Virus genome (UHGV): UHGV-0189340 | DNA length: 22,779 nucleotides | Reading direction: 5' to 3' (one strand) | From: a virus | Shown: positions 3,627 to 22,779 of the stretch, in pieces | Position numbering within the stretch: position 1 is the first letter of the stretch | Layout of the letters: the number at the start of each line of letters is the position of its first letter | Position numbers and translations under genes: made by a program | The notes under the pieces: model-generated | Databases searched by the model: none | The model's input: the letters and a program-made list of their open reading frames with translations, nothing else | Told to the model about the DNA's origin: nothing

Positions 3627-4970
3627 CTAGCTTGGGGTAACTGTAACCTGACGAGAAAAAACAACAGGCTCCTTCAATTGCTCACATATAATTTTAAAAT
3701 TAATAACTCCAGAGCCAATCGTTAAGGGAATGATGACTATTTCCTCATACTCAACAGTTAAGCTCTGTAACACTTTTTTCGCACGCAACGTGATTTTATG
3801 GTCCTCTTTCATGACCCACTCATCTTGGTTAACTGTTCCTAAATCAGCCATCCGTTTAATTATTGCTGGCACTTCGAAATGAGGTTTAGCCATTACCATC
3901 GATGTATCATCAAAAATACCCATCCTAAAATTTTCGAGTGACATTATAGCACTGAGTCTTTTTTTATGCTTACTTATTGGGGACTCGGGGATTTTTAATT
4001 TCGGCTCTTTTATAAATAAGTCTTCATTAGAACCTTTAAGCACTATTAGGAATTCAGGAAAATCAATCTCAACATAAACATTTGACGCAAAAGTCCTCCC
4101 ATTATTTCTTAAAACGGGCTTCACTGTAATTGCATTGTTTTTGTAATTACAGTGCAATCTCATTTTTTTATTATATAAATCCACATCTTTATCAGTAGGC
4201 AGTGAAGAGTTATATGATTCAATCTCATCAATGGTGATAGTGTCCTTCAACTCAAGAGGTACCGCTTCCTTGCATAGTTGTGGAAGGTAATCCTGATAAG
4301 TCGACTCCACATCCACCGTCAAAGCTAAGTCATTATCAATCATACTCAGCTCTAATTGAGGTGCATCGCTATGTAATTGGCTTTCATATTCGCGGACTTT
4401 TTCCCTTAATTTTCTATTTTCATTAGATAGCTCAGCCAACTCGGCGGTAATCTCTTTAGATGCGACCTGGTCACCGCGCACCCATCCTATTCGTGGATTT
4501 CGTCGCATTACTTTTGGTAAGGCGATAGCAACCTTCGTCGCTAACTCATCAATTGTCTCCCAAAAATCACACATTTTGTTAGCTTTAGCTTTTTCAATAA
4601 AAGCATTTAGTTGCTTTTCTTTTTGAGGGTCACTTTCTCGTTCATGTGGTTTTGTTAAAACGTCCCTCCCTCTAATAAAAGCCAACACCGGTATATTTAA
4701 TGATTTAGCATAGTTATATTCCATTTCAGTATAGCTAATACCATCTTTAGAAACGGACCCATACTTATGCCCAATGATAATCACATAATAATCACTAGCA
4801 TCAATAGTCTCCTTTATTATATCCCACTGCTCAGAGTCATCAGCGCTAAACATCTCCATGCCAACTGGAAAGTGGTATAAACTAAGGACCGTTTCTATGA
4901 TTTTTTTGCGAGCATCAATTAAATCGACGTATGTAGAGCTCACAAATACTTGATATTTTTTATTTTCCAT
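3627..4970 (-). CDS. Uncharacterised cargo protein with DUF4062/TIR-like N-terminal domain, central coiled coil and unknown C-terminal domain
   Basis: AT-rich ORF in a GC-rich tail operon. Start placed at MENKKYQVFVSSTYVDL (ATG 4970, preceded by GAGGA); the N-terminal motif resembles DUF4062/TIR-like domains as I recall them. Occupies the S-V junction where P2 carries the non-essential orf30. Confidence 0.72.
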   Translation of the reverse strand: MENKKYQVFVSSTYVDLIDARKKIIETVLSLYHFPVGMEMFSADDSEQWDIIKETIDASDYYVIIIGHKYGSVSKDGISYTEMEYNYAKSLNIPVLAFIRGRDVLTKPHERESDPQKEKQLNAFIEKAKANKMCDFWETIDELATKVAIALPKVMRRNPRIGWVRGDQVASKEITAELAELSNENRKLREKVREYESQLHSDAPQLELSMIDNDLALTVDVESTYQDYLPQLCKEAVPLELKDTITIDEIESYNSSLPTDKDVDLYNKKMRLHCNYKNNAITVKPVLRNNGRTFASNVYVEIDFPEFLIVLKGSNEDLFIKEPKLKIPESPISKHKKRLSAIMSLENFRMGIFDDTSMVMAKPHFEVPAIIKRMADLGTVNQDEWVMKEDHKITLRAKKVLQSLTVEYEEIVIIPLTIGSGVINFKIICEQLKEPVVFSRQVTVTPS

Positions 4971-5007
4971 AACATCCTCACTTGTATAGAAAATAAAATA
5001 CATAAAA

Positions 5008-5475
5008 TCAATCAATAGATCTAGCCGCCTCAGCTAAAGAAACCATAATTATGTCATGAATCATATTTTTTGATTCATGATCAAACCCGATAAGCATTCG
5101 GGCGTCATACTGTACCGGCGCACTGTTTCGCCCAGGCCTATCTTTGAGACCGTACTGATGCACATTCGCCATCCGTTGTACCTTGCCGGTAAATTCCACG
5201 ACCGCCGAGTCATTCCCCGCTGTGGCTTTCATAAAGCGACTGGTGCGGAGCTTAGCGAACATTTCCCGCTTAACCCGGCCTGTTTTGGCTTTTACCGGCT
5301 GGCGTTTTCGGGCGGCGTAAGGTGTCCCGTCCGGGGCTTTCTGCATTTTAATCCGGCGCTGTTGACGGGCTCGCAGGGTCTTAGCGATATCTGCGGCCAT
5401 TCTGCGACGGGCGGCAGGAGACAGCGCTGCTATCAGCCCCGTGAGCGTATCGTCAAAGGGTTTAAAGTCATTCAT
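5008..5475 (-). CDS. S: Tail completion protein, P2 gpS-like
   Basis: 155 aa basic protein in the R-S position; start overlaps the R stop. Confidence 0.82.
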   Translation of the reverse strand: MNDFKPFDDTLTGLIAALSPAARRRMAADIAKTLRARQQRRIKMQKAPDGTPYAARKRQPVKAKTGRVKREMFAKLRTSRFMKATAGNDSAVVEFTGKVQRMANVHQYGLKDRPGRNSAPVQYDARMLIGFDHESKNMIHDIIMVSLAEAARSID

Positions 5476-10821: not shown

Positions 10822-10985
10822 GAGTCAGGTGTCCTGAGTTGGGTTATCGGGTCGGTTGTAGTTTCCCGACTCAGCCGCTCACCAGCCACCGGTTACAGAA
10901 GTGCAACCCCTGACACAACAGGGGGTTAGCGATTCATCCCCCCTGAATCTTTAGCCTTGCCGTGTACTCATCACGGCGAGGTTTT
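10822..10985. promoter_or_regulatory. Divergent late promoter region between O (leftward) and P (rightward)
   Basis: 164-bp intergenic region between divergently oriented late operons, as in P2. Contains short hairpins (CCCCTG-N6-CAGGGG; CCGTG-N7-CACGG). I could not pick out a clean TGT-N12-ACA activator site. Confidence 0.5.
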
Positions 10986-12755
10986 ATGACCACTACAACC
11001 GACACATCACTACTCAACGATCCGCGACGACAGGCCGCGCTTTTGTTCTGGCAGGGCTATTCCGTGCCACAAATCGCGGAACAGTTGCAGGTCAAGCGCC
11101 CCACGGTGCAGAGCTGGAAGCAGCGCGATAAATGGGAAAAAACCGCACCGTTAAACCGGGTCGAGTTCACGCTCGAGGCTCGGCTGATTCAGCTCTATGC
11201 AAAGCCTGACCTGACGGCTCATGACTTTAAGGTCGCGGATTTTCTGGCGCGCCAGATGGAACGCCTCGCGCGGGTCAGTCGTTACGGTCAGACAGGTAAC
11301 GCAGCGGATTTAAACCCGAACGTGGCCAACCGCAACAAAGGGGAAAAGAAGAAGCCGAAAAAGAACTTTTTCAGCGAAGAGGCTATCGACAAGCTCGAAG
11401 AGATTTTCCTCGACCAGTCTTTCGACTATCAGCTCGAGTGGTGGCGCGCGGGGCTGGCGCACCGTATCAGGCACATCCTGAAATCACGACAGATTGGAGC
11501 GACATTCTACTTTGCGCGAGAGGCGCTGTTACAGGCGCTGAAGACCGGCCACAACCAGATATTTTTATCGGCCAGTAAGACACAGGCCTATGTATTTCGA
11601 AAATACATCATCGCCTTTGCCCGACTGGCTGGCGTCGAGCTCACCGGCGACCCGATTGTGCTCGGCAACAATGGCGCGGAGCTGATGTTTCTCGGCACCA
11701 ATGCCAACACGGCGCAGAGCCACAACGGCGACCTGTATGTCGATGAAATTTTCTGGATCCCCAACTTCCAGAAGCTGAAGCGCGTTGCCGGTGGCATGTC
11801 TTCACAGGAGCATTTGCGCACGACCTATTTTTCGACCCCCTCATCGCTGGCGCACGGTGCCTATCCGTTCTGGTCGGGTGAACAGTTCAACAAGGGACGC
11901 TCAGACAAGAGCGAGCGCGTCGATATCGATATCAGTCACGCAGCACTCGCGAAGGGTGTCGCTTGCCCGGACGGCCAGTGGCGGCAGATTGTCACCATCG
12001 AGGACGCACTCGCTAAAGGGTGCACACTGTTTAACATCGACACGCTGAAGCGCGAGAACAGCGTCGATGAGTTCCGTAATCTGTTTATGTGCGAGTTCGT
12101 CGACGATAAAGCGTCGGTATTCCCGTTCGAAGAGCTGCAACGCTGCATGGTCGACAGCCTCGAGAAATGGGAGGACTACACGCCATTTGCCGACCGGCCT
12201 TTCGGTCACCGCCCGGTGTGGATTGGTTACGACCCGTCATTACGCGGCGACAGCGCCGGGTGCGTCGTCATCGCGCCGCCAGTCGTCGCCGGTGGACGAT
12301 TCCGAATCCTCGAGCGCCATCAGTGGAAAGGGATGGATTTTGCTCAACAGGCCGAATCCATTCGCGAGCTCACGCAGAAATATACCGTCGAATACATCGG
12401 CATCGATGCGACCGGGCTCGGACAGGGCGTTTTCCAGTTAGTGCGCTCATTCTACCCGGCAGCGCGTGAAATCCGCTACACGCCGGAAATGAAAACCGCA
12501 ATGGTGCTGAAAGCCAAAGACACCATTCGCCGCGGTTGCCTCGAGTACGACGTCAGCGCGACCGATATCACGCAGTCGTTTATGTCTATCCGCAAAACCA
12601 TGACCAGCAGCGGGCGCAGCTCGACCTATGAGGCCAGCCGCACCGAGGAAGCCAGTCACGCCGATCTCGCGTGGGCAACCATGCACGTATTAATCAATGA
12701 GCCGCTGACCGCCGCGACCGGCGAACAGTCATCCAGTATTATGGAGTGGAACTAA
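10986..12755 (+). CDS. P: Terminase large (ATPase) subunit, P2 gpP-like
   Basis: 589 aa from the ATG at 10986 (GAGG 5 nt upstream); P2 gpP is about 590 aa. Stop overlaps the Q start (TAATG). Confidence 0.9.
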   Translation: MTTTTDTSLLNDPRRQAALLFWQGYSVPQIAEQLQVKRPTVQSWKQRDKWEKTAPLNRVEFTLEARLIQLYAKPDLTAHDFKVADFLARQMERLARVSRYGQTGNAADLNPNVANRNKGEKKKPKKNFFSEEAIDKLEEIFLDQSFDYQLEWWRAGLAHRIRHILKSRQIGATFYFAREALLQALKTGHNQIFLSASKTQAYVFRKYIIAFARLAGVELTGDPIVLGNNGAELMFLGTNANTAQSHNGDLYVDEIFWIPNFQKLKRVAGGMSSQEHLRTTYFSTPSSLAHGAYPFWSGEQFNKGRSDKSERVDIDISHAALAKGVACPDGQWRQIVTIEDALAKGCTLFNIDTLKRENSVDEFRNLFMCEFVDDKASVFPFEELQRCMVDSLEKWEDYTPFADRPFGHRPVWIGYDPSLRGDSAGCVVIAPPVVAGGRFRILERHQWKGMDFAQQAESIRELTQKYTVEYIGIDATGLGQGVFQLVRSFYPAAREIRYTPEMKTAMVLKAKDTIRRGCLEYDVSATDITQSFMSIRKTMTSSGRSSTYEASRTEEASHADLAWATMHVLINEPLTAATGEQSSSIMEWN

Positions 12756-13783
12756 TGAGCAAGAATCGCAACAACAAGCGACAGCAGCCGCGCCCCCAAA
12801 GTCACACCGCCGCATCGGCACAGAGCATGGAGGCATTCACCTTTGGCGAGCCGACGCCGGTACTCGATCGCCGCGACATTCTCGATTATGTGGAGTGCAT
12901 CGACAACGGCCAATGGTATGAGCCGCCGGTGAGCTTCTCCGGGCTGGCGAAGAGCATGCGCGCCGCCGTTCATCACAGCTCACCGATTTACGTGAAGCGT
13001 AATATTCTGGTGTCGACCTACATCCCGCACCCGCTGTTATCGCGTCAGGATTTCAGCCGGTTCGTGCTCGATTATCTGGTATTTGGCAACGCCTTTCTCG
13101 AAGAGCGTCGCGGTCTGACTGGCAAGCCGCTAAAGCTGGAGACCTCACCGGCCAAATATACCCGTCGTGGCGTTGATGATGACGTGTACTGGTATATCCA
13201 GTCCTACACGCAACCGCACCAGTTTTCGCCCGGTTCCGTCTTCCACCTGCTTGAGCCTGATATTAATCAGGAGCTGTACGGGATGCCGGAATACCTGAGC
13301 GCACTCAATTCAGCCTGGCTGAATGAGTCAGCGACACTGTTTCGTCGCAAGTATTACCAGAACGGCGCGCACGCAGGGTACATCATGTATGTGACCGATG
13401 CCGCTCAGAACAGCACTGACGTCGAAGCGTTGCGAAAGGCGATGCGCGACTCGAAAGGGCTCGGCAATTTTAAGAATCTGTTTTTCTACGCACCGCACGG
13501 TAAACCGGATGGGATTAAAATTGTGCCGCTGAGCGAAGTCGCGACGAAGGATGATTTTTTTAATATCAAGAAAGTCAGCGCCGCTGACCTGCTCGACGCG
13601 CACCGCATCCCGTTCCAGTTGATGGGCGGCAAGCCTGAGAACGTCGGCTCAGTGGGCGATATTGAGAAAGTGGCAAAAGTATTTGTTCGCAATGAATTAA
13701 CTCCATTGCAAGATAGGATTCGTGAATTAAATCATTGGTTTGGTGATAATTTAATTAAGTTCAAGCCGTATACCTTTGATTAA
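12755..13783 (+). CDS. Q: Portal protein, P2 gpQ-like
   Basis: 342 aa from the ATG overlapping the P stop (P2 gpQ 344 aa); the P-Q pair is transcribed toward cos as in P2. Confidence 0.9.
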   Translation: MSKNRNNKRQQPRPQSHTAASAQSMEAFTFGEPTPVLDRRDILDYVECIDNGQWYEPPVSFSGLAKSMRAAVHHSSPIYVKRNILVSTYIPHPLLSRQDFSRFVLDYLVFGNAFLEERRGLTGKPLKLETSPAKYTRRGVDDDVYWYIQSYTQPHQFSPGSVFHLLEPDINQELYGMPEYLSALNSAWLNESATLFRRKYYQNGAHAGYIMYVTDAAQNSTDVEALRKAMRDSKGLGNFKNLFFYAPHGKPDGIKIVPLSEVATKDDFFNIKKVSAADLLDAHRIPFQLMGGKPENVGSVGDIEKVAKVFVRNELTPLQDRIRELNHWFGDNLIKFKPYTFD

Positions 13784-13798
13784 GTATGAATGCAAAAA

Positions 13799-13830
13799 AT
13801 CCAGAGTCCATTATAATAATGACTCTGGAT
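13799..13830. terminator. Bidirectional rho-independent terminator between convergent Q and the cargo operon
   Basis: Perfect 10-bp inverted repeat ATCCAGAGTC / GACTCTGGAT with a 12-nt loop. The minus-strand reading is followed by a T-run (ATTTTTTGCATT); the plus-strand side has a weaker T-tract. Confidence 0.6.
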
Positions 13831-13839
13831 GAAAATGTT

Positions 13840-14526
13840 TTATTGCTTATCTTGTGGTGGTGGAACCTCTTTTTCTAAATTATCTACATACTCTCTAATA
13901 TTGAATGCTTTGTTTTTCCTTATTTCGGTAGTGTTAACCTTACTAACACCATCACGAATGTTTTTATTTATGGTGTCTATTAATTTTTGTCTTTCTTGTT
14001 CTGTTTTTATTATTTCACTTAAGAATGACTTTGCGTTTCTTGAAATGTCCGTCTGTCTATTAATGAATAGTATCGCATACACTGAAAAAACCAAGCAAGT
14101 AGTCGTTAGTGCGGAATTAAAAAATACCCCATAATAAACATTAACTTTTGTTATTGACGCTGATAACGTTAGTGATATCAAAAAAAACAAAATCAGGGTA
14201 AAAATATATGCAATGGTTACTTTGTTTTTAGTGGTGTCAAGAATGTATGAAGTTCTTTGATCATCAAAGTAATCCTTTATCCTTGATGGAGTGTTTGCGG
14301 GGAGTTCTAACTCCTTTATTTTATCATCAGCATCAATTAGTCGCTTAAACATGAGGCTAATGATTACGGCGCTAAAGACAGAGATCCCCTTTGAAATTAT
14401 AGGATCGAAATCAATTAAAAATGAGTATTTTGAATAAACAAAAACAATAACAAAACCACATATAAGCCCAATTACAATTGAGCTTGCTATGTTTTTTGCA
14501 TATGTTTGTAACGTATTGTTTATCAT
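13840..14526 (-). CDS. Uncharacterised four-helix membrane protein; second gene of cargo operon, candidate membrane effector
   Basis: 228 aa, AT-rich. Four hydrophobic helices in a 2+2 arrangement (about residues 13-31, 47-60, 105-126, 132-155) and a charged C-terminal tail. Its ATG overlaps the upstream stop (ATGA). Confidence 0.75.
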   Translation of the reverse strand: MINNTLQTYAKNIASSIVIGLICGFVIVFVYSKYSFLIDFDPIISKGISVFSAVIISLMFKRLIDADDKIKELELPANTPSRIKDYFDDQRTSYILDTTKNKVTIAYIFTLILFFLISLTLSASITKVNVYYGVFFNSALTTTCLVFSVYAILFINRQTDISRNAKSFLSEIIKTEQERQKLIDTINKNIRDGVSKVNTTEIRKNKAFNIREYVDNLEKEVPPPQDKQ

Positions 14527-15506
14527 GGGTTAATTACTCCGGTGTCTAGTAAGCGCAATAACCATGAAATCATTTCTTCAGCAACGTTGTCAGCAATTAG
14601 CATTCCATTGCTGTATTCAATATTAACTGAATCCTTTAGTTGAATCTCATCATTCCTGAGTATTCCTGCACCTTTTAACTCAATTGTTAAGCTTTCATCT
14701 CTATTATCAACCAAGCCTTGTGTAATTTTACGCAACATGTCTTGCTCAGACTCGCTTGCTTTATATTTATACCCAATGGAAATATCAATTGATAGAGATT
14801 CCCTGTCAGGTGAACCATCATTTAAAATGGCATTTTTCTTCATTTCATTAATTCGATGTTCACCTACGAGCGTTTTTAATAGCTCACTAGCTGTATCATC
14901 AATATTATTTCCATAGTAGGTTAAAGGCAGCTTTAAGCTAACATTTTTTACTATGTTACGTTTTAAAAAATCCGTATTTAGAGACAGGTTGTTTGCCTGT
15001 AAAACGATGAAGTTATCATCAGTAATAGATAGGTTGTCTTGTAGTATGAAATTTATATAATTTTCAATATCTTTTATTCTAATAGATCTGCTTTGCAGAA
15101 TTATGAAGTGGTTCTTAATCACACCAATGTATGCAATGCTTTCTAAATACTCTCTAGCATTCCCACTTGATAAATTTAATGTCTCGTATGTTAAAGCTGT
15201 TTTAGCATAATCGCTAACAGAGAAAACAGGAATGCTACTACCCGGTTCAATATAGACAATTTCCGCAAAAAACATTCCATGAATTTCTTTGCTATTTGAA
15301 AGAACCATGTGGGCGTGAGCAGCGACATTACCATTATTATCTGGAACATCAGGGAAGAATAATCTATCAGCAACATTTGGAACCTTGATTTTCACAAGGT
15401 TTGCCAACCTATCTTGCAGGTTTGATGTTAAAAGAGCATCCTTTTTAGGAAGCATTATTGCATGGCGATAATGCAGCATTTTACTCTTATAATCTTGCGT
15501 TGCCAT
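14523..15506 (-). CDS. Uncharacterised soluble protein; first gene of cargo operon, candidate sensor or enzymatic partner
   Basis: 327 aa, AT-rich, Asn/Ile/Leu-rich. Good RBS (AGAGGGA, 5-nt spacer) before the ATG at 15506. No Walker A, HxH or other motif I recognise. Confidence 0.78.
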   Translation of the reverse strand: MATQDYKSKMLHYRHAIMLPKKDALLTSNLQDRLANLVKIKVPNVADRLFFPDVPDNNGNVAAHAHMVLSNSKEIHGMFFAEIVYIEPGSSIPVFSVSDYAKTALTYETLNLSSGNAREYLESIAYIGVIKNHFIILQSRSIRIKDIENYINFILQDNLSITDDNFIVLQANNLSLNTDFLKRNIVKNVSLKLPLTYYGNNIDDTASELLKTLVGEHRINEMKKNAILNDGSPDRESLSIDISIGYKYKASESEQDMLRKITQGLVDNRDESLTIELKGAGILRNDEIQLKDSVNIEYSNGMLIADNVAEEMISWLLRLLDTGVINP

Positions 15507-15577
15507 AGAATCCCTCTTGCTATGAATATGTTATACACGGAGCGAAGCAATTATGTATTGTATTGCTCTGGCGCGCA

Positions 15578-15596
15578 ATGCTATCCCCGCCACGCC
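15578..15596 (-). other. cos site (19-nt cohesive end) of P2/186 type
   Basis: Minus strand reads GGCGTGGCGGGGATAGCAT followed by TGCGCGC. Recalled P2 left end is GGCGAGGCGGGGAAAGCAC-TGCGCGC and 186 cos is GGCGTGGCGGGGAAAGCAT (18/19 match). Confidence 0.8.
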
Positions 15597-15877: not shown

Positions 15878-16060
15878 CTATTCAGCCTTATAGAAAATTT
15901 CGTCTTTTTCTTCGTCGCTTTCGCTGTTAGCTAGGCCGGCAATCAGAGTTAGTGCCAGCTTCAAATCTGCCGGTTTGCAGTTGGCAATAAGAGATATCTC
16001 GGCGATAAATTGCACACAAGCCCACTTTTGCTGCGTTCGGCTGAAATGTTTCCCAACCAT
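15878..16060 (-). CDS. Small acidic protein under a LexA box; possible SOS-inducible antirepressor (Tum-like role)
   Basis: 60-aa ORF with a strong RBS (GGGAGGG, about 6-nt spacer) and a LexA box about 20 bp upstream. Lies between A and cos, where 186 carries the LexA-controlled tum operon. No sequence homology to Tum is claimed. Confidence 0.5.
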   Translation of the reverse strand: MVGKHFSRTQQKWACVQFIAEISLIANCKPADLKLALTLIAGLANSESDEEKDEIFYKAE

Positions 16061-16100: not shown

Positions 16101-16249
16101 TAACGTATTGGCAAAAGATGGGAAGAGAAAAAGTGAATCGGGTAGGTGTTGTATGTACATGATATGGATGTAAATTAATCACCTGTGAGTTTTGATGTTT
16201 CTGCCAGCACCGCAACACGATTAAGGATTTCCCTAGGCTTTGCCTGAAG

Positions 16250-18403
16250 CTATGGCGCTGCGGAGAAAATTTCACCTTTGGACGTTCCACGCAACCATTT
16301 ACCGTTAATACAACTTTTGCCACCTGCTATCAGGTGCAGGGCTTCTCCCCGGCTGATGGTAATGCCGGTTGTCAGACGGATCTCGTCGATAGTTTTTTCT
16401 ATCGGAGCACTTTGCTCATCTGTTCCGTGGATAAATTTCGGCCTCTTAGGTGGCTTTGGTTTCCTGATTCGGTTCGTCAGCTCTCGCCTTTCACGTCGAC
16501 TCAGGGGTTTTGATAAATCGAGTTCCGGTGGATCGCTTTCGCTTCCCGTACAGTTATTGACAGAACTCGAACTCCAAGGGACGGCGAAGCCGTCCTTAAC
16601 GTCAAAGGCCAAATCAACGGCACGCTTCGGAACAATTTTCCATTGCGTGAGCCGGGTTAAAATCGGAGTGCCAACACCAACGGTGGAGTCGTACACACCA
16701 CGAATGCAGACAGTTTCCTCACCATACTGGTTAAACTCGGTGCGCGGTTCATAAAGCGTACGCACCTGCAAATCATCGCGACGGACAAACGGACCGCCCT
16801 GCGCATTAACATAGCCAGCCCAATCACCGGCATCGGCGGCATCATGGACAGCCGCAAACTCAACACTTAGACCGTGCGCGGTCTCGGTATCTGCAAGGCG
16901 ACGCAATTCACGATAAACAGTCACTGGTGCACCACCGATAAACTGAAACTGACGAATATGCCAGCGCGCCGCCCATGCTGAAACGGCGGGGGCTGTCTCT
17001 TTCAACAGTTCACCGTTTTCGTCATCGGTTTCGTCATCAAGAGCGTAACCGTCGATATTTTTCGAGATGTATTTCGCGACGTAGCCGGTTGCGCTGCCTT
17101 TCTCCGGATCAATGGCTTCTGCGTGGAAACGTGCTTTTTTGGCTTTATCGCTTTTGAGTTCGTGAAAATCTTCTTGCCATGCGTAGTCCCGAATAATGCC
17201 ACGAACGGTATCGACGTCCTCCGGGAGCATAAACATCAGCATATGCCAGTGAGGGCACCCGTCATGGTGAGGCTCTGCAACGCGGATCCCGAAAATACGA
17301 ATGTCTTCACGGTGGAGTTTTGCGCGAATGCGTGCCCACAGGCCAGTGAGATAACATTGCGTATCGGATGGATTGGATCCATTCCATTTGGTGTTACGGT
17401 AGCCTGCCTTTGTCGTGGCGTGATATTTAGACGGTGCGGTCAGGGTGTAAAACTCACCAACATAACCGAGCTCATTGCAGATATTTTCAAACCCACGAAT
17501 GCGGGTCATAAGCTCACAGCGTCGAATCGCAGAGTTAGCGACTGAACCATCGTATTTTTCAATCAGGCTGATACGGTTGCCGTCTTCGTCTTCAAGCTCC
17601 AGACCTTTGAGAAATTCGCGCGTCCGGCGCTTCTGTTCACGCCAGTCTGTCACGCAGTTTTTACTCGCGTAGACATGTTTTTTCTTACTGACATTTCCGA
17701 TTGCGATTTGCAGGTGTTCGCGCCACGCAGCCGCAACGCGACGCAGACGGCCACGCCACCATTTTTCCGAAAACATACGGGCAATTGCTGGAGCGACTTT
17801 ATCCTGATCCCAATATTTATCCCGCGACCGTTCCCACTCTGGTGGCATTATCCTGAATTGCTGAGTGATGAAACCAGCATGCATATACCAGGCATTTAAT
17901 GTCTCCAGTTCACACATGTCAGAATCGTCAATGTTGACTAACTCTGCACGGATAAAATCGGCGATATCAGCAGCCAGCAGGTCGATGTCGGCGCGTGCCA
18001 TATCCGGGAGTCGGTTGTATCTGGCGACTATGTTGACCATGCGAGACGCCAGATATTGCATAAGCTGAGTATCGAAATGACAACCGAAAACAGCGGCTGA
18101 TACGTTGCTGTTAATACCGGTACACTCGTATTTTTTTGCGACCAGTTCAAAACGCGGCAATGCCTTTTTGCAGAAGCTTATTAAAAAAGCATTGGCTCGT
18201 TGACTGCCCTGATTTTGCTCCAGCACCGCAGCAGTGCGATAAACGTCAAAACGTACACACTCGGGCTGGAGGGAAAGCACCTTTCTAGCATGCAGCAAAG
18301 CCGCGAGCATACGGTCGCGGCGATACTGTTGGTCGTAGGTAAGATATGGACTGGCTATTGCCGACCGTGGAGCATTCCACGGAAACGCGAATTGAACAGC
18401 CAA
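16250..18403 (-). CDS. A: Replication initiation endonuclease, P2 gpA-like (rolling-circle initiator)
   Basis: 717-aa ORF (P2 gpA 761 aa) at the distal end of the early operon, before the cos-proximal region; a P2-type ori would be expected inside its 3' part. Confidence 0.88.
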   Translation of the reverse strand: MAVQFAFPWNAPRSAIASPYLTYDQQYRRDRMLAALLHARKVLSLQPECVRFDVYRTAAVLEQNQGSQRANAFLISFCKKALPRFELVAKKYECTGINSNVSAAVFGCHFDTQLMQYLASRMVNIVARYNRLPDMARADIDLLAADIADFIRAELVNIDDSDMCELETLNAWYMHAGFITQQFRIMPPEWERSRDKYWDQDKVAPAIARMFSEKWWRGRLRRVAAAWREHLQIAIGNVSKKKHVYASKNCVTDWREQKRRTREFLKGLELEDEDGNRISLIEKYDGSVANSAIRRCELMTRIRGFENICNELGYVGEFYTLTAPSKYHATTKAGYRNTKWNGSNPSDTQCYLTGLWARIRAKLHREDIRIFGIRVAEPHHDGCPHWHMLMFMLPEDVDTVRGIIRDYAWQEDFHELKSDKAKKARFHAEAIDPEKGSATGYVAKYISKNIDGYALDDETDDENGELLKETAPAVSAWAARWHIRQFQFIGGAPVTVYRELRRLADTETAHGLSVEFAAVHDAADAGDWAGYVNAQGGPFVRRDDLQVRTLYEPRTEFNQYGEETVCIRGVYDSTVGVGTPILTRLTQWKIVPKRAVDLAFDVKDGFAVPWSSSSVNNCTGSESDPPELDLSKPLSRRERRELTNRIRKPKPPKRPKFIHGTDEQSAPIEKTIDEIRLTTGITISRGEALHLIAGGKSCINGKWLRGTSKGEIFSAAP

Positions 18404-20822: not shown

Positions 20823-21860
20823 ATGAGTGTTAAAAAACTGACATCGGGTGAATGGCTTTGTGATTTCCGCGTCGACGGGGCTGAAAGTCGCCGCGTGCGT
20901 AAGAAGTTTTCAACCAAAGGTGAAGCCGTTGCCTTCGAACAGTATTACCGAGAAGAGGCACAAAATAAGCCGTGGATGGGTGAGAAGGAAGACCGTCGAC
21001 GTTTGAGTGAACTGATTGAGCTGTGGCATAACCTCCATGGCCAGTCGCTCGCTGCCAGCAAATCGCGATTGGCCAAACTGCACATTGTTTGCCGGGGTCT
21101 TGGCGACCCAATCGCTACCCAGCTTACCGCCAAAGATTTCGCCCATTATCGGGATAAACGTCTCAAGGGTGAAATCGACAATGGCTATCACGCAAATTCT
21201 GAAAAGTGGATTGCGAAACCTGTGACTGTGAACCGGGAACAACAGTACCTCGAAGCTGTTTTCAATGAGCTGAAGCGCTTGGGTGAGTGGAGTCTGCCAA
21301 ATCCTCTCGAAGGTGTGCGAGTTTTCAAAGAAGCCGAAAAAGAAATGTCTTGGCTTACCCAGCCTCAAATTCGCGAAGTGCTCAATGCTTGTGAGTCATA
21401 CGGGAAAATTTATTTAACCCGTATCGTCAAAGTGTGCTTAGCGACTGGTGCTCGATGGAGCGAGGCCGAGCGTCTTACTCGTTCACAGCTTTCACCCCAC
21501 AAGTTGACTTTCACTAAAACGAAGGGAAAGAAGAATCGTACAGTACCGATCCCTCGGTGGCTATATGACGAGTTGGCTCCTTTACAGGGAAAAATGTTCC
21601 ACCCCTGCTATCAGGAGTTCAAGAAAATGCTCGCTCTGACCGATATAGAGTTAGCTGAAGGGCAAAAAACGCATGTGTTACGTCATACATTTGCGAGTCA
21701 CTTTATGATGAATGGTGGGAACATTTTAGTACTGCAACGAATCTTGGGCCATTCTAACATTAGGGAAACCATGAGATACGCTCATTTTGCACCAGATCAT
21801 TTAGAAGAAGCTGTAACTCTTAACCCTATTTCTAATTTAACAGGATTATATGATGAGTGA
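20823..21860 (+). CDS. int: Tyrosine integrase (P2/186 Int family)
   Basis: 345 aa; C-terminal catalytic region with conserved R...HxLRHT...R...Y pattern (HVLRHTFASHF...GHSNIRETMRYAH). Confidence 0.9.
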   Translation: MSVKKLTSGEWLCDFRVDGAESRRVRKKFSTKGEAVAFEQYYREEAQNKPWMGEKEDRRRLSELIELWHNLHGQSLAASKSRLAKLHIVCRGLGDPIATQLTAKDFAHYRDKRLKGEIDNGYHANSEKWIAKPVTVNREQQYLEAVFNELKRLGEWSLPNPLEGVRVFKEAEKEMSWLTQPQIREVLNACESYGKIYLTRIVKVCLATGARWSEAERLTRSQLSPHKLTFTKTKGKKNRTVPIPRWLYDELAPLQGKMFHPCYQEFKKMLALTDIELAEGQKTHVLRHTFASHFMMNGGNILVLQRILGHSNIRETMRYAHFAPDHLEEAVTLNPISNLTGLYDE

Positions 21861-22779
21861 GCCAACCATCGAAACACCTCCAAGAATGACCGAGGCCAAA
21901 GTCATTAGGGTACGCACTCGTGGTTTTTATAATTTAGTTGAGATAGGTGCAGTCTTTCTAGTTGCAAATGTAATTTTTGCTACAGGGATATTAGACTCAA
22001 CCTTTTATTATTTATTTCCCAGTGCGAGAGCAGATCTTACACATTTGCCGAGCTTTATCAGGTCAATATTCGCAGTGTCATTTGTAATCGTTTACACCAT
22101 TATCTATGGTGTGTCTCCAATCCAAAGAATGTTTATGAGAATTACAGGGAGTGATTCAGTCGACAAATCATCGATGTTTAATATTGTCGATATTATAAAT
22201 GAGATAAAACTACTCAAGAAGGCTCAAGAGGAAAGGGCTGCTGCTGATGAAGATGAATCTCTGGATTTTTATCTTAAAGGTTTGATTAATAGCTCTGAAG
22301 GTCTTGCGAAAAACATATATTCTCGCGGTAGTCTTTATTTATTAGTCGGTGTTTGTTTTGCAATAGTTGGATTAGGTTTCTTCTATTCTCAATCACATGT
22401 AATTGATGCTAAGGATGATGCGGTAACCAAGGTAATGTATCTTCTCCCTAATTTTGGCGTGTTGATTTTCTTGGAGTTAATCGCATTTTTCTTTTTGAAG
22501 CAATATCGGGTTACGATGGATGAGTTTCGCTATTACGAGGCAATAAAACGTTCACGTGAGGAAAGCTATGCCATTATAAAGCTTGTAATGGCTAGCCAGA
22601 AAGATATCGATATGATAGACCTTCTGGATAAAATTAATTTTAGCTCAAGAGTTGGAAAACTAGAATCAGGGCAGACTACTGAAATTATTGAAGCAAGAAA
22701 ATTAGACAAAAATGAACTTGAAACCTTAGTAAAGCTTACCGAGGCAGTTGCGGGTAAGATTGGACAGGGAAATAAGTAG
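21850..22779 (+). CDS. Uncharacterised four-helix membrane protein, translationally coupled to int
   Basis: 309 aa, AT-rich. ATG (21850 or 21853) overlaps the last int codons. Four hydrophobic helices in a 2+2 arrangement with a charged central loop and helical C-terminal tail. Stop codon is the last three bases of the window. Confidence 0.7.
   Translation: MMSEPTIETPPRMTEAKVIRVRTRGFYNLVEIGAVFLVANVIFATGILDSTFYYLFPSARADLTHLPSFIRSIFAVSFVIVYTIIYGVSPIQRMFMRITGSDSVDKSSMFNIVDIINEIKLLKKAQEERAAADEDESLDFYLKGLINSSEGLAKNIYSRGSLYLLVGVCFAIVGLGFFYSQSHVIDAKDDAVTKVMYLLPNFGVLIFLELIAFFFLKQYRVTMDEFRYYEAIKRSREESYAIIKLVMASQKDIDMIDLLDKINFSSRVGKLESGQTTEIIEARKLDKNELETLVKLTEAVAGKIGQGNK

Follow-up and report, generated by a model that had tools for sequence, protein, structure and literature searches.

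The stretch analysed here (UHGV virus genome UHGV-0189340; 22,779 nucleotides, referred to below as the window) is part of a 186/P2-like Escherichia coli prophage; strain FORC 064 and 12 other complete genomes carry a prophage that matches it at 100% identity. Between its portal gene Q and its cohesive-end site, cos, lie two genes on the minus strand, here called A and B, which probably form a phage-exclusion cassette of the RexAB type. Gene A (14523..15506, minus strand) encodes a soluble, acidic protein of 327 amino acids (isoelectric point 5.3; RefSeq WP_000235290), proposed to be a cytoplasmic sensor or activator with a RexA/RdgC-type fold. Gene B (13840..14526, minus strand) encodes a basic protein of 228 amino acids with four transmembrane (TM) helices (isoelectric point 9.1; RefSeq WP_000609549), the proposed inner-membrane effector. 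The genes overlap by four bases in an ATGA stop/start (14523..14526, minus strand; junction CCC-ATGA-TA), an arrangement of translational coupling, and the ribosome-binding site of gene A, AAGAGGGA (15511..15518, minus strand), lies 5 nucleotides upstream of its ATG. An intrinsic terminator (13793..13830, minus strand), consisting of a 14-bp hairpin (13799-13830) and a run of six Ts, lies between the convergent genes B and Q; the hairpin has a folding energy of -15.9 kcal/mol (z = -4.5; none of 200 shuffles was equally stable) and carries a U6 tail on the minus strand. On the other side, 72 bp from the start of gene A, the cos cohesive-end sequence GGCGTGGCGGGGATAGCAT (15578..15596, minus strand), with one mismatch to the cos of related prophages, bounds the cargo slot and lies outside the system. 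A preliminary description of the window, made from its letters alone, had already reported the two minus-strand genes, their ATGA overlap, the strong ribosome-binding site, the terminator and a cos site about 70 bp upstream, and we recovered every one of these at the positions given above.

The same description saw an AT-rich block in a GC-rich backbone, and base composition bears this out: the block has a G+C fraction of 0.33 (0.31-0.34 along it), compared to 0.52 for the remainder of the window and 0.52-0.60 for the terminase, portal and replication genes that flank it. One could take the two open reading frames (ORFs) for chance readings of an AT-rich spacer, as both are unannotated in domain libraries, though nothing further speaks for this. 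Shuffling the block 300 times gave longest ORFs of 79 codons on average and of 154 at most, compared to the 327 and 228 observed, and the genes come with a ribosome-binding site, translational coupling and a terminator; their conservation over more than ten loci refutes the idea, to which we assign practically no weight.

Comparison with related prophages, which the preliminary description had proposed as a way of detecting cargo swapping, identifies the block as inserted material. The distance from the portal stop codon to cos is 178 bp in the related prophage of strain 600029 and 1795 bp in the window, and the block is thus an insertion. The block is carried by 13 E. coli genomes, while in about 1050 the match is confined to the 130 bp around cos; the opposite picture, a pair found in all P2-like phages with the composition of the backbone, does not apply to a block of 33% GC. 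In E. coli PKF8 the same slot is occupied by an unrelated, unannotated gene of 334 amino acids (locus L143, 3457-4461, plus strand), showing that cargo is swapped on the Q side, and in a further P2-like prophage (locus L008) a homologue of the pair, 64% identical, likewise lies between cos and the portal gene. With empty, swapped and homologous-pair versions in 600029, PKF8 and L008, the interval between Q and cos is a cargo slot in its own right. The old and tin genes of P2 belong to the same variable locus, spanning gpA, cos and gpQ, but encode unrelated proteins on the A side of cos; the contrast drawn earlier between them and the present genes is therefore correct as to position, whereas cargo on the Q side is not exceptional, as L008 and PKF8 demonstrate.

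Protein A contains no hydrophobic segment and protein B contains four, in agreement with the soluble and four-helix membrane proteins first proposed. Searches of Pfam, NCBIfam and PADLOC, among them the profile searches suggested at the outset (Pfam and PADLOC), gave no significant match for either protein. Sub-threshold library matches of the two proteins to MgtE, ArcB and DUF3908 fall in TM or low-complexity regions and were rejected as chance. Protein A does match PHROG 3482 (7e-35), a family of unknown function. A word-indexed search of 5.8 billion proteins found 2 clusters for B and 17 for A, the latter down to 38% identity and coming from E. coli, Enterobacter, Aeromonas hydrophila and Vibrio vulnificus. 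When a profile built from 16 close homologues of A was run against 1.84 billion cluster representatives, a threshold of E <= 1e-3 was passed by 502 proteins and one of E <= 1e-10 by 276, with lengths of 315-360 amino acids in almost every case; a Pfam domain was present in 0 of the 141 family members checked. Patterns drawn from the A alignment found no relative among GTDB species representatives. The positions conserved in the family (HYRH, YIEPG, NH..LQS, GYKY, DNRDE..IELKGAG and a tryptophan near the C-terminus) are scattered structural motifs. As far as can be read from the sequence, nothing suggests an enzyme: neither the libraries nor the conserved positions give a recognisable catalytic motif or enzymatic domain, as had been noted before.

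The pair itself has been catalogued. The gpA-gpQ locus is a known hotspot of anti-phage systems (Rousset et al. 2022, PMC9122126), and proteins A and B correspond to system #72 in Table S5B of that study, where no Pfam domain is given; the match is by N-terminal strings of 18 and 16 residues, in a table row that, as retrieved, holds the whole of B and the first ~110 residues of A. The entry records 58 occurrences among 18,150 loci and lists the accessions WP_000235290 and WP_000609549 for NZ_CP022664. A 2026 follow-up on the P2 and P4 hotspots leaves Rex unmentioned and describes new systems of other architecture; of the newly named P4 systems, none of Crouga, Bandua, Aernus, Toga, Reve or Hailong fits that of the pair. 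The earlier suggestion of a possibly undescribed family thus holds in so far as the family has no domain annotation, though the pair was already listed and systems of the RexAB-like kind are known.

An indication of what protein A might be comes from its predicted structure. In two independent models, RexA scores well ahead of every other match in the PDB, and a Foldseek search against viral models returns five uncharacterised phage proteins followed by phage RdgC, RdgC being a published structural relative of RexA. The model begins with an N-terminal sheet and helices, continues with a four-strand/four-helix module at about residues 175-285, and ends with a return strand and a long C-terminal helix. 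The structural definition of RexA (PDB ID: 8TWQ) comprises a split globular alpha/beta domain, an inserted four-strand/four-helix dimerisation domain, a C-terminal helix and an RdgC-like fold, and each of these is found in the model of A, whose predicted order of elements mirrors the split globular domain of RexA with its inserted dimerisation domain. E. coli RdgC (PDB ID: 2OWL), which scores below RexA, differs in being a stand-alone, ring-forming DNA-binding modulator of recombination with no membrane partner. The relation between A and RexA is at the level of fold, and could reflect either remote homology or convergence; the genomic context favours homology.

In protein B the hydrophobic segments span residues 13-31, 42-60, 103-121 and 137-155, and are accompanied by a charged central loop of 42 residues and a charged C-terminal tail of 73. 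Lysines and arginines number 9 in the loop and 15 in the tail, whereas the other loops have 1 each; this charge distribution points to an N-in/C-in topology, with the N-terminus, the central loop and the tail in the cytoplasm. B therefore has the layout of RexB, a small four-TM protein with cytoplasmic termini encoded directly downstream of a RexA-like gene, the match being one of topology only. The same four-TM layout occurs in all of the at least ten partners examined. Directly after the fourth helix (residues ~170-186; 14000-14050, minus strand) lies a motif, E..R..L(I/L)..L.K, that is kept in the partners from E. coli, Vibrio, Aeromonas, the Acinetobacter phage and phage Perceval discussed below, even though these are only 14-30% identical, and that is absent from lambda RexB. 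It is a candidate docking or gating helix.

The two genes travel together. At every close locus retrieved, a homologue of A precedes a four-TM gene of 216-229 amino acids (167-229 if distant relatives are included), and over more than ten loci length and order are conserved down to 38% identity for A and about 15% for B. The CCATGA junction recurs in five of the six loci inspected (L002, L005, L006, L009 and L012), while at L008 the called gene begins farther upstream and an ATGA overlap is inferred only. The surroundings vary widely. For instance, the pair lies next to the portal gene in P2-like prophages (L008 and L012), between psu and int in a P4-like satellite (L006/L007), about 400 bp from cos at the P4 defence hotspot, and at the end of a satellite-like element of Aeromonas (L002) that carries int, Ogr/Delta, GPO, capsid and primase genes. 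Further copies are found beside a serine recombinase in a Vibrio prophage of the T7 RNA polymerase type (L005), in a chromosome of 65% GC (L009), and beside ParAB and HicAB on a plasmid-prophage-like contig. In each context compared, the pair is much more AT-rich than what surrounds it. The pattern is that of a horizontally mobile, self-contained cassette of 1.7 kb, enriched in defence hotspots.

More distant relatives of A, 22-27% identical (tblastn, E-values of 1e-16 to 1e-8), occur in the genomes of temperate phages. In Escherichia phage Perceval the cI repressor gene is followed by an A-like gene (340 amino acids) and a 'transmembrane protein' of 168 amino acids. A similar example is found in Acinetobacter phage phi1_092021, where a repressor and a small ORF precede an A-like gene (333 amino acids) and a protein of 167. 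The charged C-terminal motif of B recurs in both partners, each of them a protein with four TM segments, and the gene order in both phages is the cI-rexA-rexB arrangement of lambda. The A-like gene of phi1_092021 (L015, 3001-4002, plus strand; 23% identical to A) was labelled 'DefenseFinder protein' by its depositor, which suggests that some annotation pipeline ties the A family to an entry in a defence database. In Shigella phage SfIV (L016, 3501-4324) the pair occupies the moron slot between Q and the holin gene, and its four-TM partner is cut to 108 amino acids by IS1, so this copy of the system is probably inactive. The copy in the window lies between Q and cos, and not downstream of a cI gene where it would be co-expressed in the lysogen.

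These contexts also bear on whether the genes might serve the life cycle of the prophage itself, with A modulating the lysis-lysogeny switch, recombination or packaging near cos and B acting as a membrane accessory. Lambda RexA is known to stabilise the lytic state on its own, independently of RexB, RdgC binds DNA and is associated with recombination, the cassette lies just beside cos, and its distant relatives sit in immunity regions. Against this, of about 1050 E. coli prophages that share cos only 13 carry the pair, which is therefore not part of the backbone; the same cassette appears in a P4-like satellite, an Aeromonas satellite, a T7 RNA polymerase-type Vibrio prophage and a high-GC chromosome; and the obligate membrane partner is left unexplained. 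We consider a life-cycle role unlikely.

Taken with the gene structure and coupling, the foreign composition and the insertion of the block at a site that is otherwise empty, the match of A to the RexA fold, the topology of B, the conservation of the pair and the rexAB-equivalent position of its relatives support an assignment of the pair as a RexAB-type cassette of two genes for phage exclusion (abortive infection), borne as cargo between Q and cos, to which we attach a probability of roughly 65%. Several results weigh against this assignment. When a 141-sequence profile of the A family was aligned to a 29-sequence profile of RexA with hhalign, the probability was 0.3%, and the B family gave 0.3% with RexB; reciprocal hidden Markov model (HMM) searches between the A family and RexA reached about 0-2 bits. 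The RexA models (Pfam PF15969 and PADLOC PDLC02339) match neither A nor any of 141 family members, and the RexB models (PF15968 and PDLC02340) do not match B. The likeness of B to RexB is one of topology alone, four-TM bundles are common, and B is 84 amino acids longer than RexB. The stretch from cos to the start of gene A showed no convincing promoter, a scan giving weak sigma-70-like matches only, and the regions upstream of homologous cassettes, which cannot be aligned apart from cos, show no conserved promoter. In lambda, exclusion does not strictly depend on the binding of RexA to DNA, which leaves the sensing step speculative. System #72, finally, is absent from the systems that Rousset et al. 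cloned and tested, and has no match in their Table S2.

As a positive control, the Pfam and PADLOC models recovered lambda RexA (1e-97 and 9e-110) and lambda RexB (8.5e-92 and 8.6e-61). Alignment by hhalign of the A and B families to the single lambda sequences was likewise negative, and a search of the PDB with the A-family profile (hmmsearch) returned nothing. The pair thus falls outside RexA and RexB as these are defined by sequence, while sharing the RexA fold, and the sensor-plus-effector logic of the RexA/RexB kind suggested in the preliminary description gains the fold of A, the topology of B and the position of the relatives, and lacks a match at the level of sequence. An alternative is that the genes are membrane-acting cargo unrelated to Rex, such as a superinfection-exclusion system, a toxin-antitoxin or addiction module or another moron, with the match of A to RexA being convergent or that of a generic alpha/beta fold. 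However, RexA leads the other PDB matches clearly in both models, and fold, gene order, a four-TM partner and a position after cI are unlikely to coincide by chance; we therefore regard unrelated cargo as improbable.

RexAB was the first abortive-infection system to be described, some 70 years ago. The differences between lambda RexA/RexB (PDB ID: 8TWQ; PF15969/PF15968) and the pair go beyond the lack of detectable sequence similarity. Protein A is 48 amino acids longer than lambda RexA, and the additional length of B includes the charged 73-residue tail that RexB lacks. The lambda rex genes are separated by 15 bp in the immunity operon, whereas those of the pair overlap by ATGA and lie in the Q-cos slot of a P2-like prophage.

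Other systems known from the literature were compared by description. The Sucellos system (SclA/SclB; VCA0367-0368 in the Vibrio cholerae superintegron) requires both of its genes, has in SclB a predicted transmembrane pore and leads to the death of infected cells (Darracq et al., bioRxiv 10.1101/2024.07.02.601686). Sucellos is RexAB-like by structure, unmatched by Pfam and has homologues mostly in enterobacterial prophages, a description that the pair also fits. We found no A-family or RexA member by HMM search of 544 kb of Vibrio integron cassettes (120 loci retrieved through the V. cholerae repeat, VCR); V. cholerae is represented neither among the close homologues of A nor in two cluster look-ups of distant members, and the short Logan contigs with A homologues contain no VCR. 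RexABpp of Pseudomonas putida prophage P1 (PP_5643/PP_5644) also needs both genes; over-expression of its RexA leads to RexB-dependent growth arrest and membrane leakage, and this RexA binds DNA (PMC12894663). RexApp matches RexA at 98% in HHpred, whereas the A family gives no profile signal, and RexABpp lies near a cI-like repressor rather than in the P2 hotspot. The pairs of actinobacteriophages Sbash (gp30/31), CarolAnn (gp44/43) and Butters (gp30/31) combine a soluble RexA-like protein with a membrane protein, are encoded by prophages and provide heterotypic defence; they differ from the present pair in having Gram-positive hosts, in being triggered by specific phage proteins and, for Butters, in having reversed roles. 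The membrane protein acts as effector, or is indispensable, in the systems of lambda, P. putida, Sbash and CarolAnn and in Sucellos.

By analogy with lambda Rex, RexABpp and Sucellos, a course of events can be proposed for the cassette. Expressed in the lysogen, A would be a cytoplasmic and probably dimeric protein of the RexA/RdgC fold that senses an infecting phage. The signal, going by RexA, might be DNA or a DNA-protein intermediate of replication or recombination, to which A would bind, or else a phage protein. Activated A would engage the cytoplasmic loop or the C-terminal tail of B, and B would then oligomerise in the inner membrane into a channel or pore. The membrane would depolarise or leak, ATP would fall and growth would stop, such that the incoming phage would fail to complete its cycle and the lysogen population would be protected.

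The logic could also run the other way, as it does in mycobacteriophage Butters, with A as the toxic effector and B sequestering it until infection. A reversed-role variant is known within the RexAB-like family, the long cytoplasmic tail and central loop of B could serve as a docking platform, and strict translational coupling fits a stoichiometric pair resembling a toxin and its anti-toxin. On the other hand, A has no recognisable catalytic motif, and the other Rex-like systems use the membrane protein as effector or depend on it. We hold such a reversal to be about as improbable as the other functional alternatives, and retain B as the proposed effector of the exclusion cassette.

How the pair is transcribed may be considered in light of its neighbours, which follow the order terminase P (10962-12755, plus strand), portal Q (12746-13783, plus strand), gene B, gene A, cos, an ORF of 60 amino acids, and replication gene A (16250-18403, minus strand). 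If the cassette has a promoter of its own, this would have to lie in the spacer of about 60 bp between cos and the ribosome-binding site (15519..15577, minus strand). Transcription may begin at a weak start in this spacer, or may read through across cos from upstream. A sigma-70-like site is present at 16124-16097, upstream of the 60-residue ORF, and a transcript from there could cross cos into the pair. The ORF itself (15878-16060, minus strand; WP_000232871), which is without a family match and is listed by Rousset et al. in the same locus arrangement, was considered as a further part of the system and rejected, as it is found at 83% identity in 67 genomes without the pair and thus belongs to the backbone on the gpA side.

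Other features of the window deserve mention. A stop codon at 16250-16252 ends replication gene A 24 codons short of the RefSeq gene model, which is flagged as a pseudogene with an internal stop (window 16175-16252, minus strand); the prophage may therefore be impaired in replication, yet it is identical in 13 genomes. A second possible cargo slot lies between baseplate gene V and tail-completion gene S (3627-5015, minus strand), encoding a protein of 447-462 amino acids with an N-terminal DUF4062 domain (Pfam, 1.9e-28); it has no PADLOC match and could be a further accessory or defence gene of an uncharacterised kind. An ORF of 310 amino acids (21844-22773, plus strand), situated where the prophage ends, overlaps the last part of the integrase gene; it gave nothing significant in Pfam and may be further cargo at the attachment-site end.

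Both the existence of the pair, catalogued as system #72, and that of divergent RexAB-like systems were already established. What is new here is a probable function for system #72, a family of about 500 representatives without annotation in domain libraries, and a conserved C-terminal motif in the partner proteins. A bolder and rather unlikely reading would make the A family a third independent lineage of the RexA fold beside canonical RexAB and Sucellos, comprising these ~500 unannotated representatives, in which the B motif would be a gating or docking element and sensing would be linked to cos; if true, this would provide a defined trigger for a Rex-type system in E. coli K-12. On the assignment as a RexAB-type cassette, a module of RexA-fold sensor and four-TM effector would be far more widely spread than the Pfam and PADLOC models show, travelling among P2-like phages, satellites of the P4-like and other kinds, and the immunity regions of lambdoid phages. 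The compact E. coli version, for which an empty site is available as comparator, is suited to mechanistic work, and the alignments made here could seed HMMs that close the gap in annotation by defence-finding programs.

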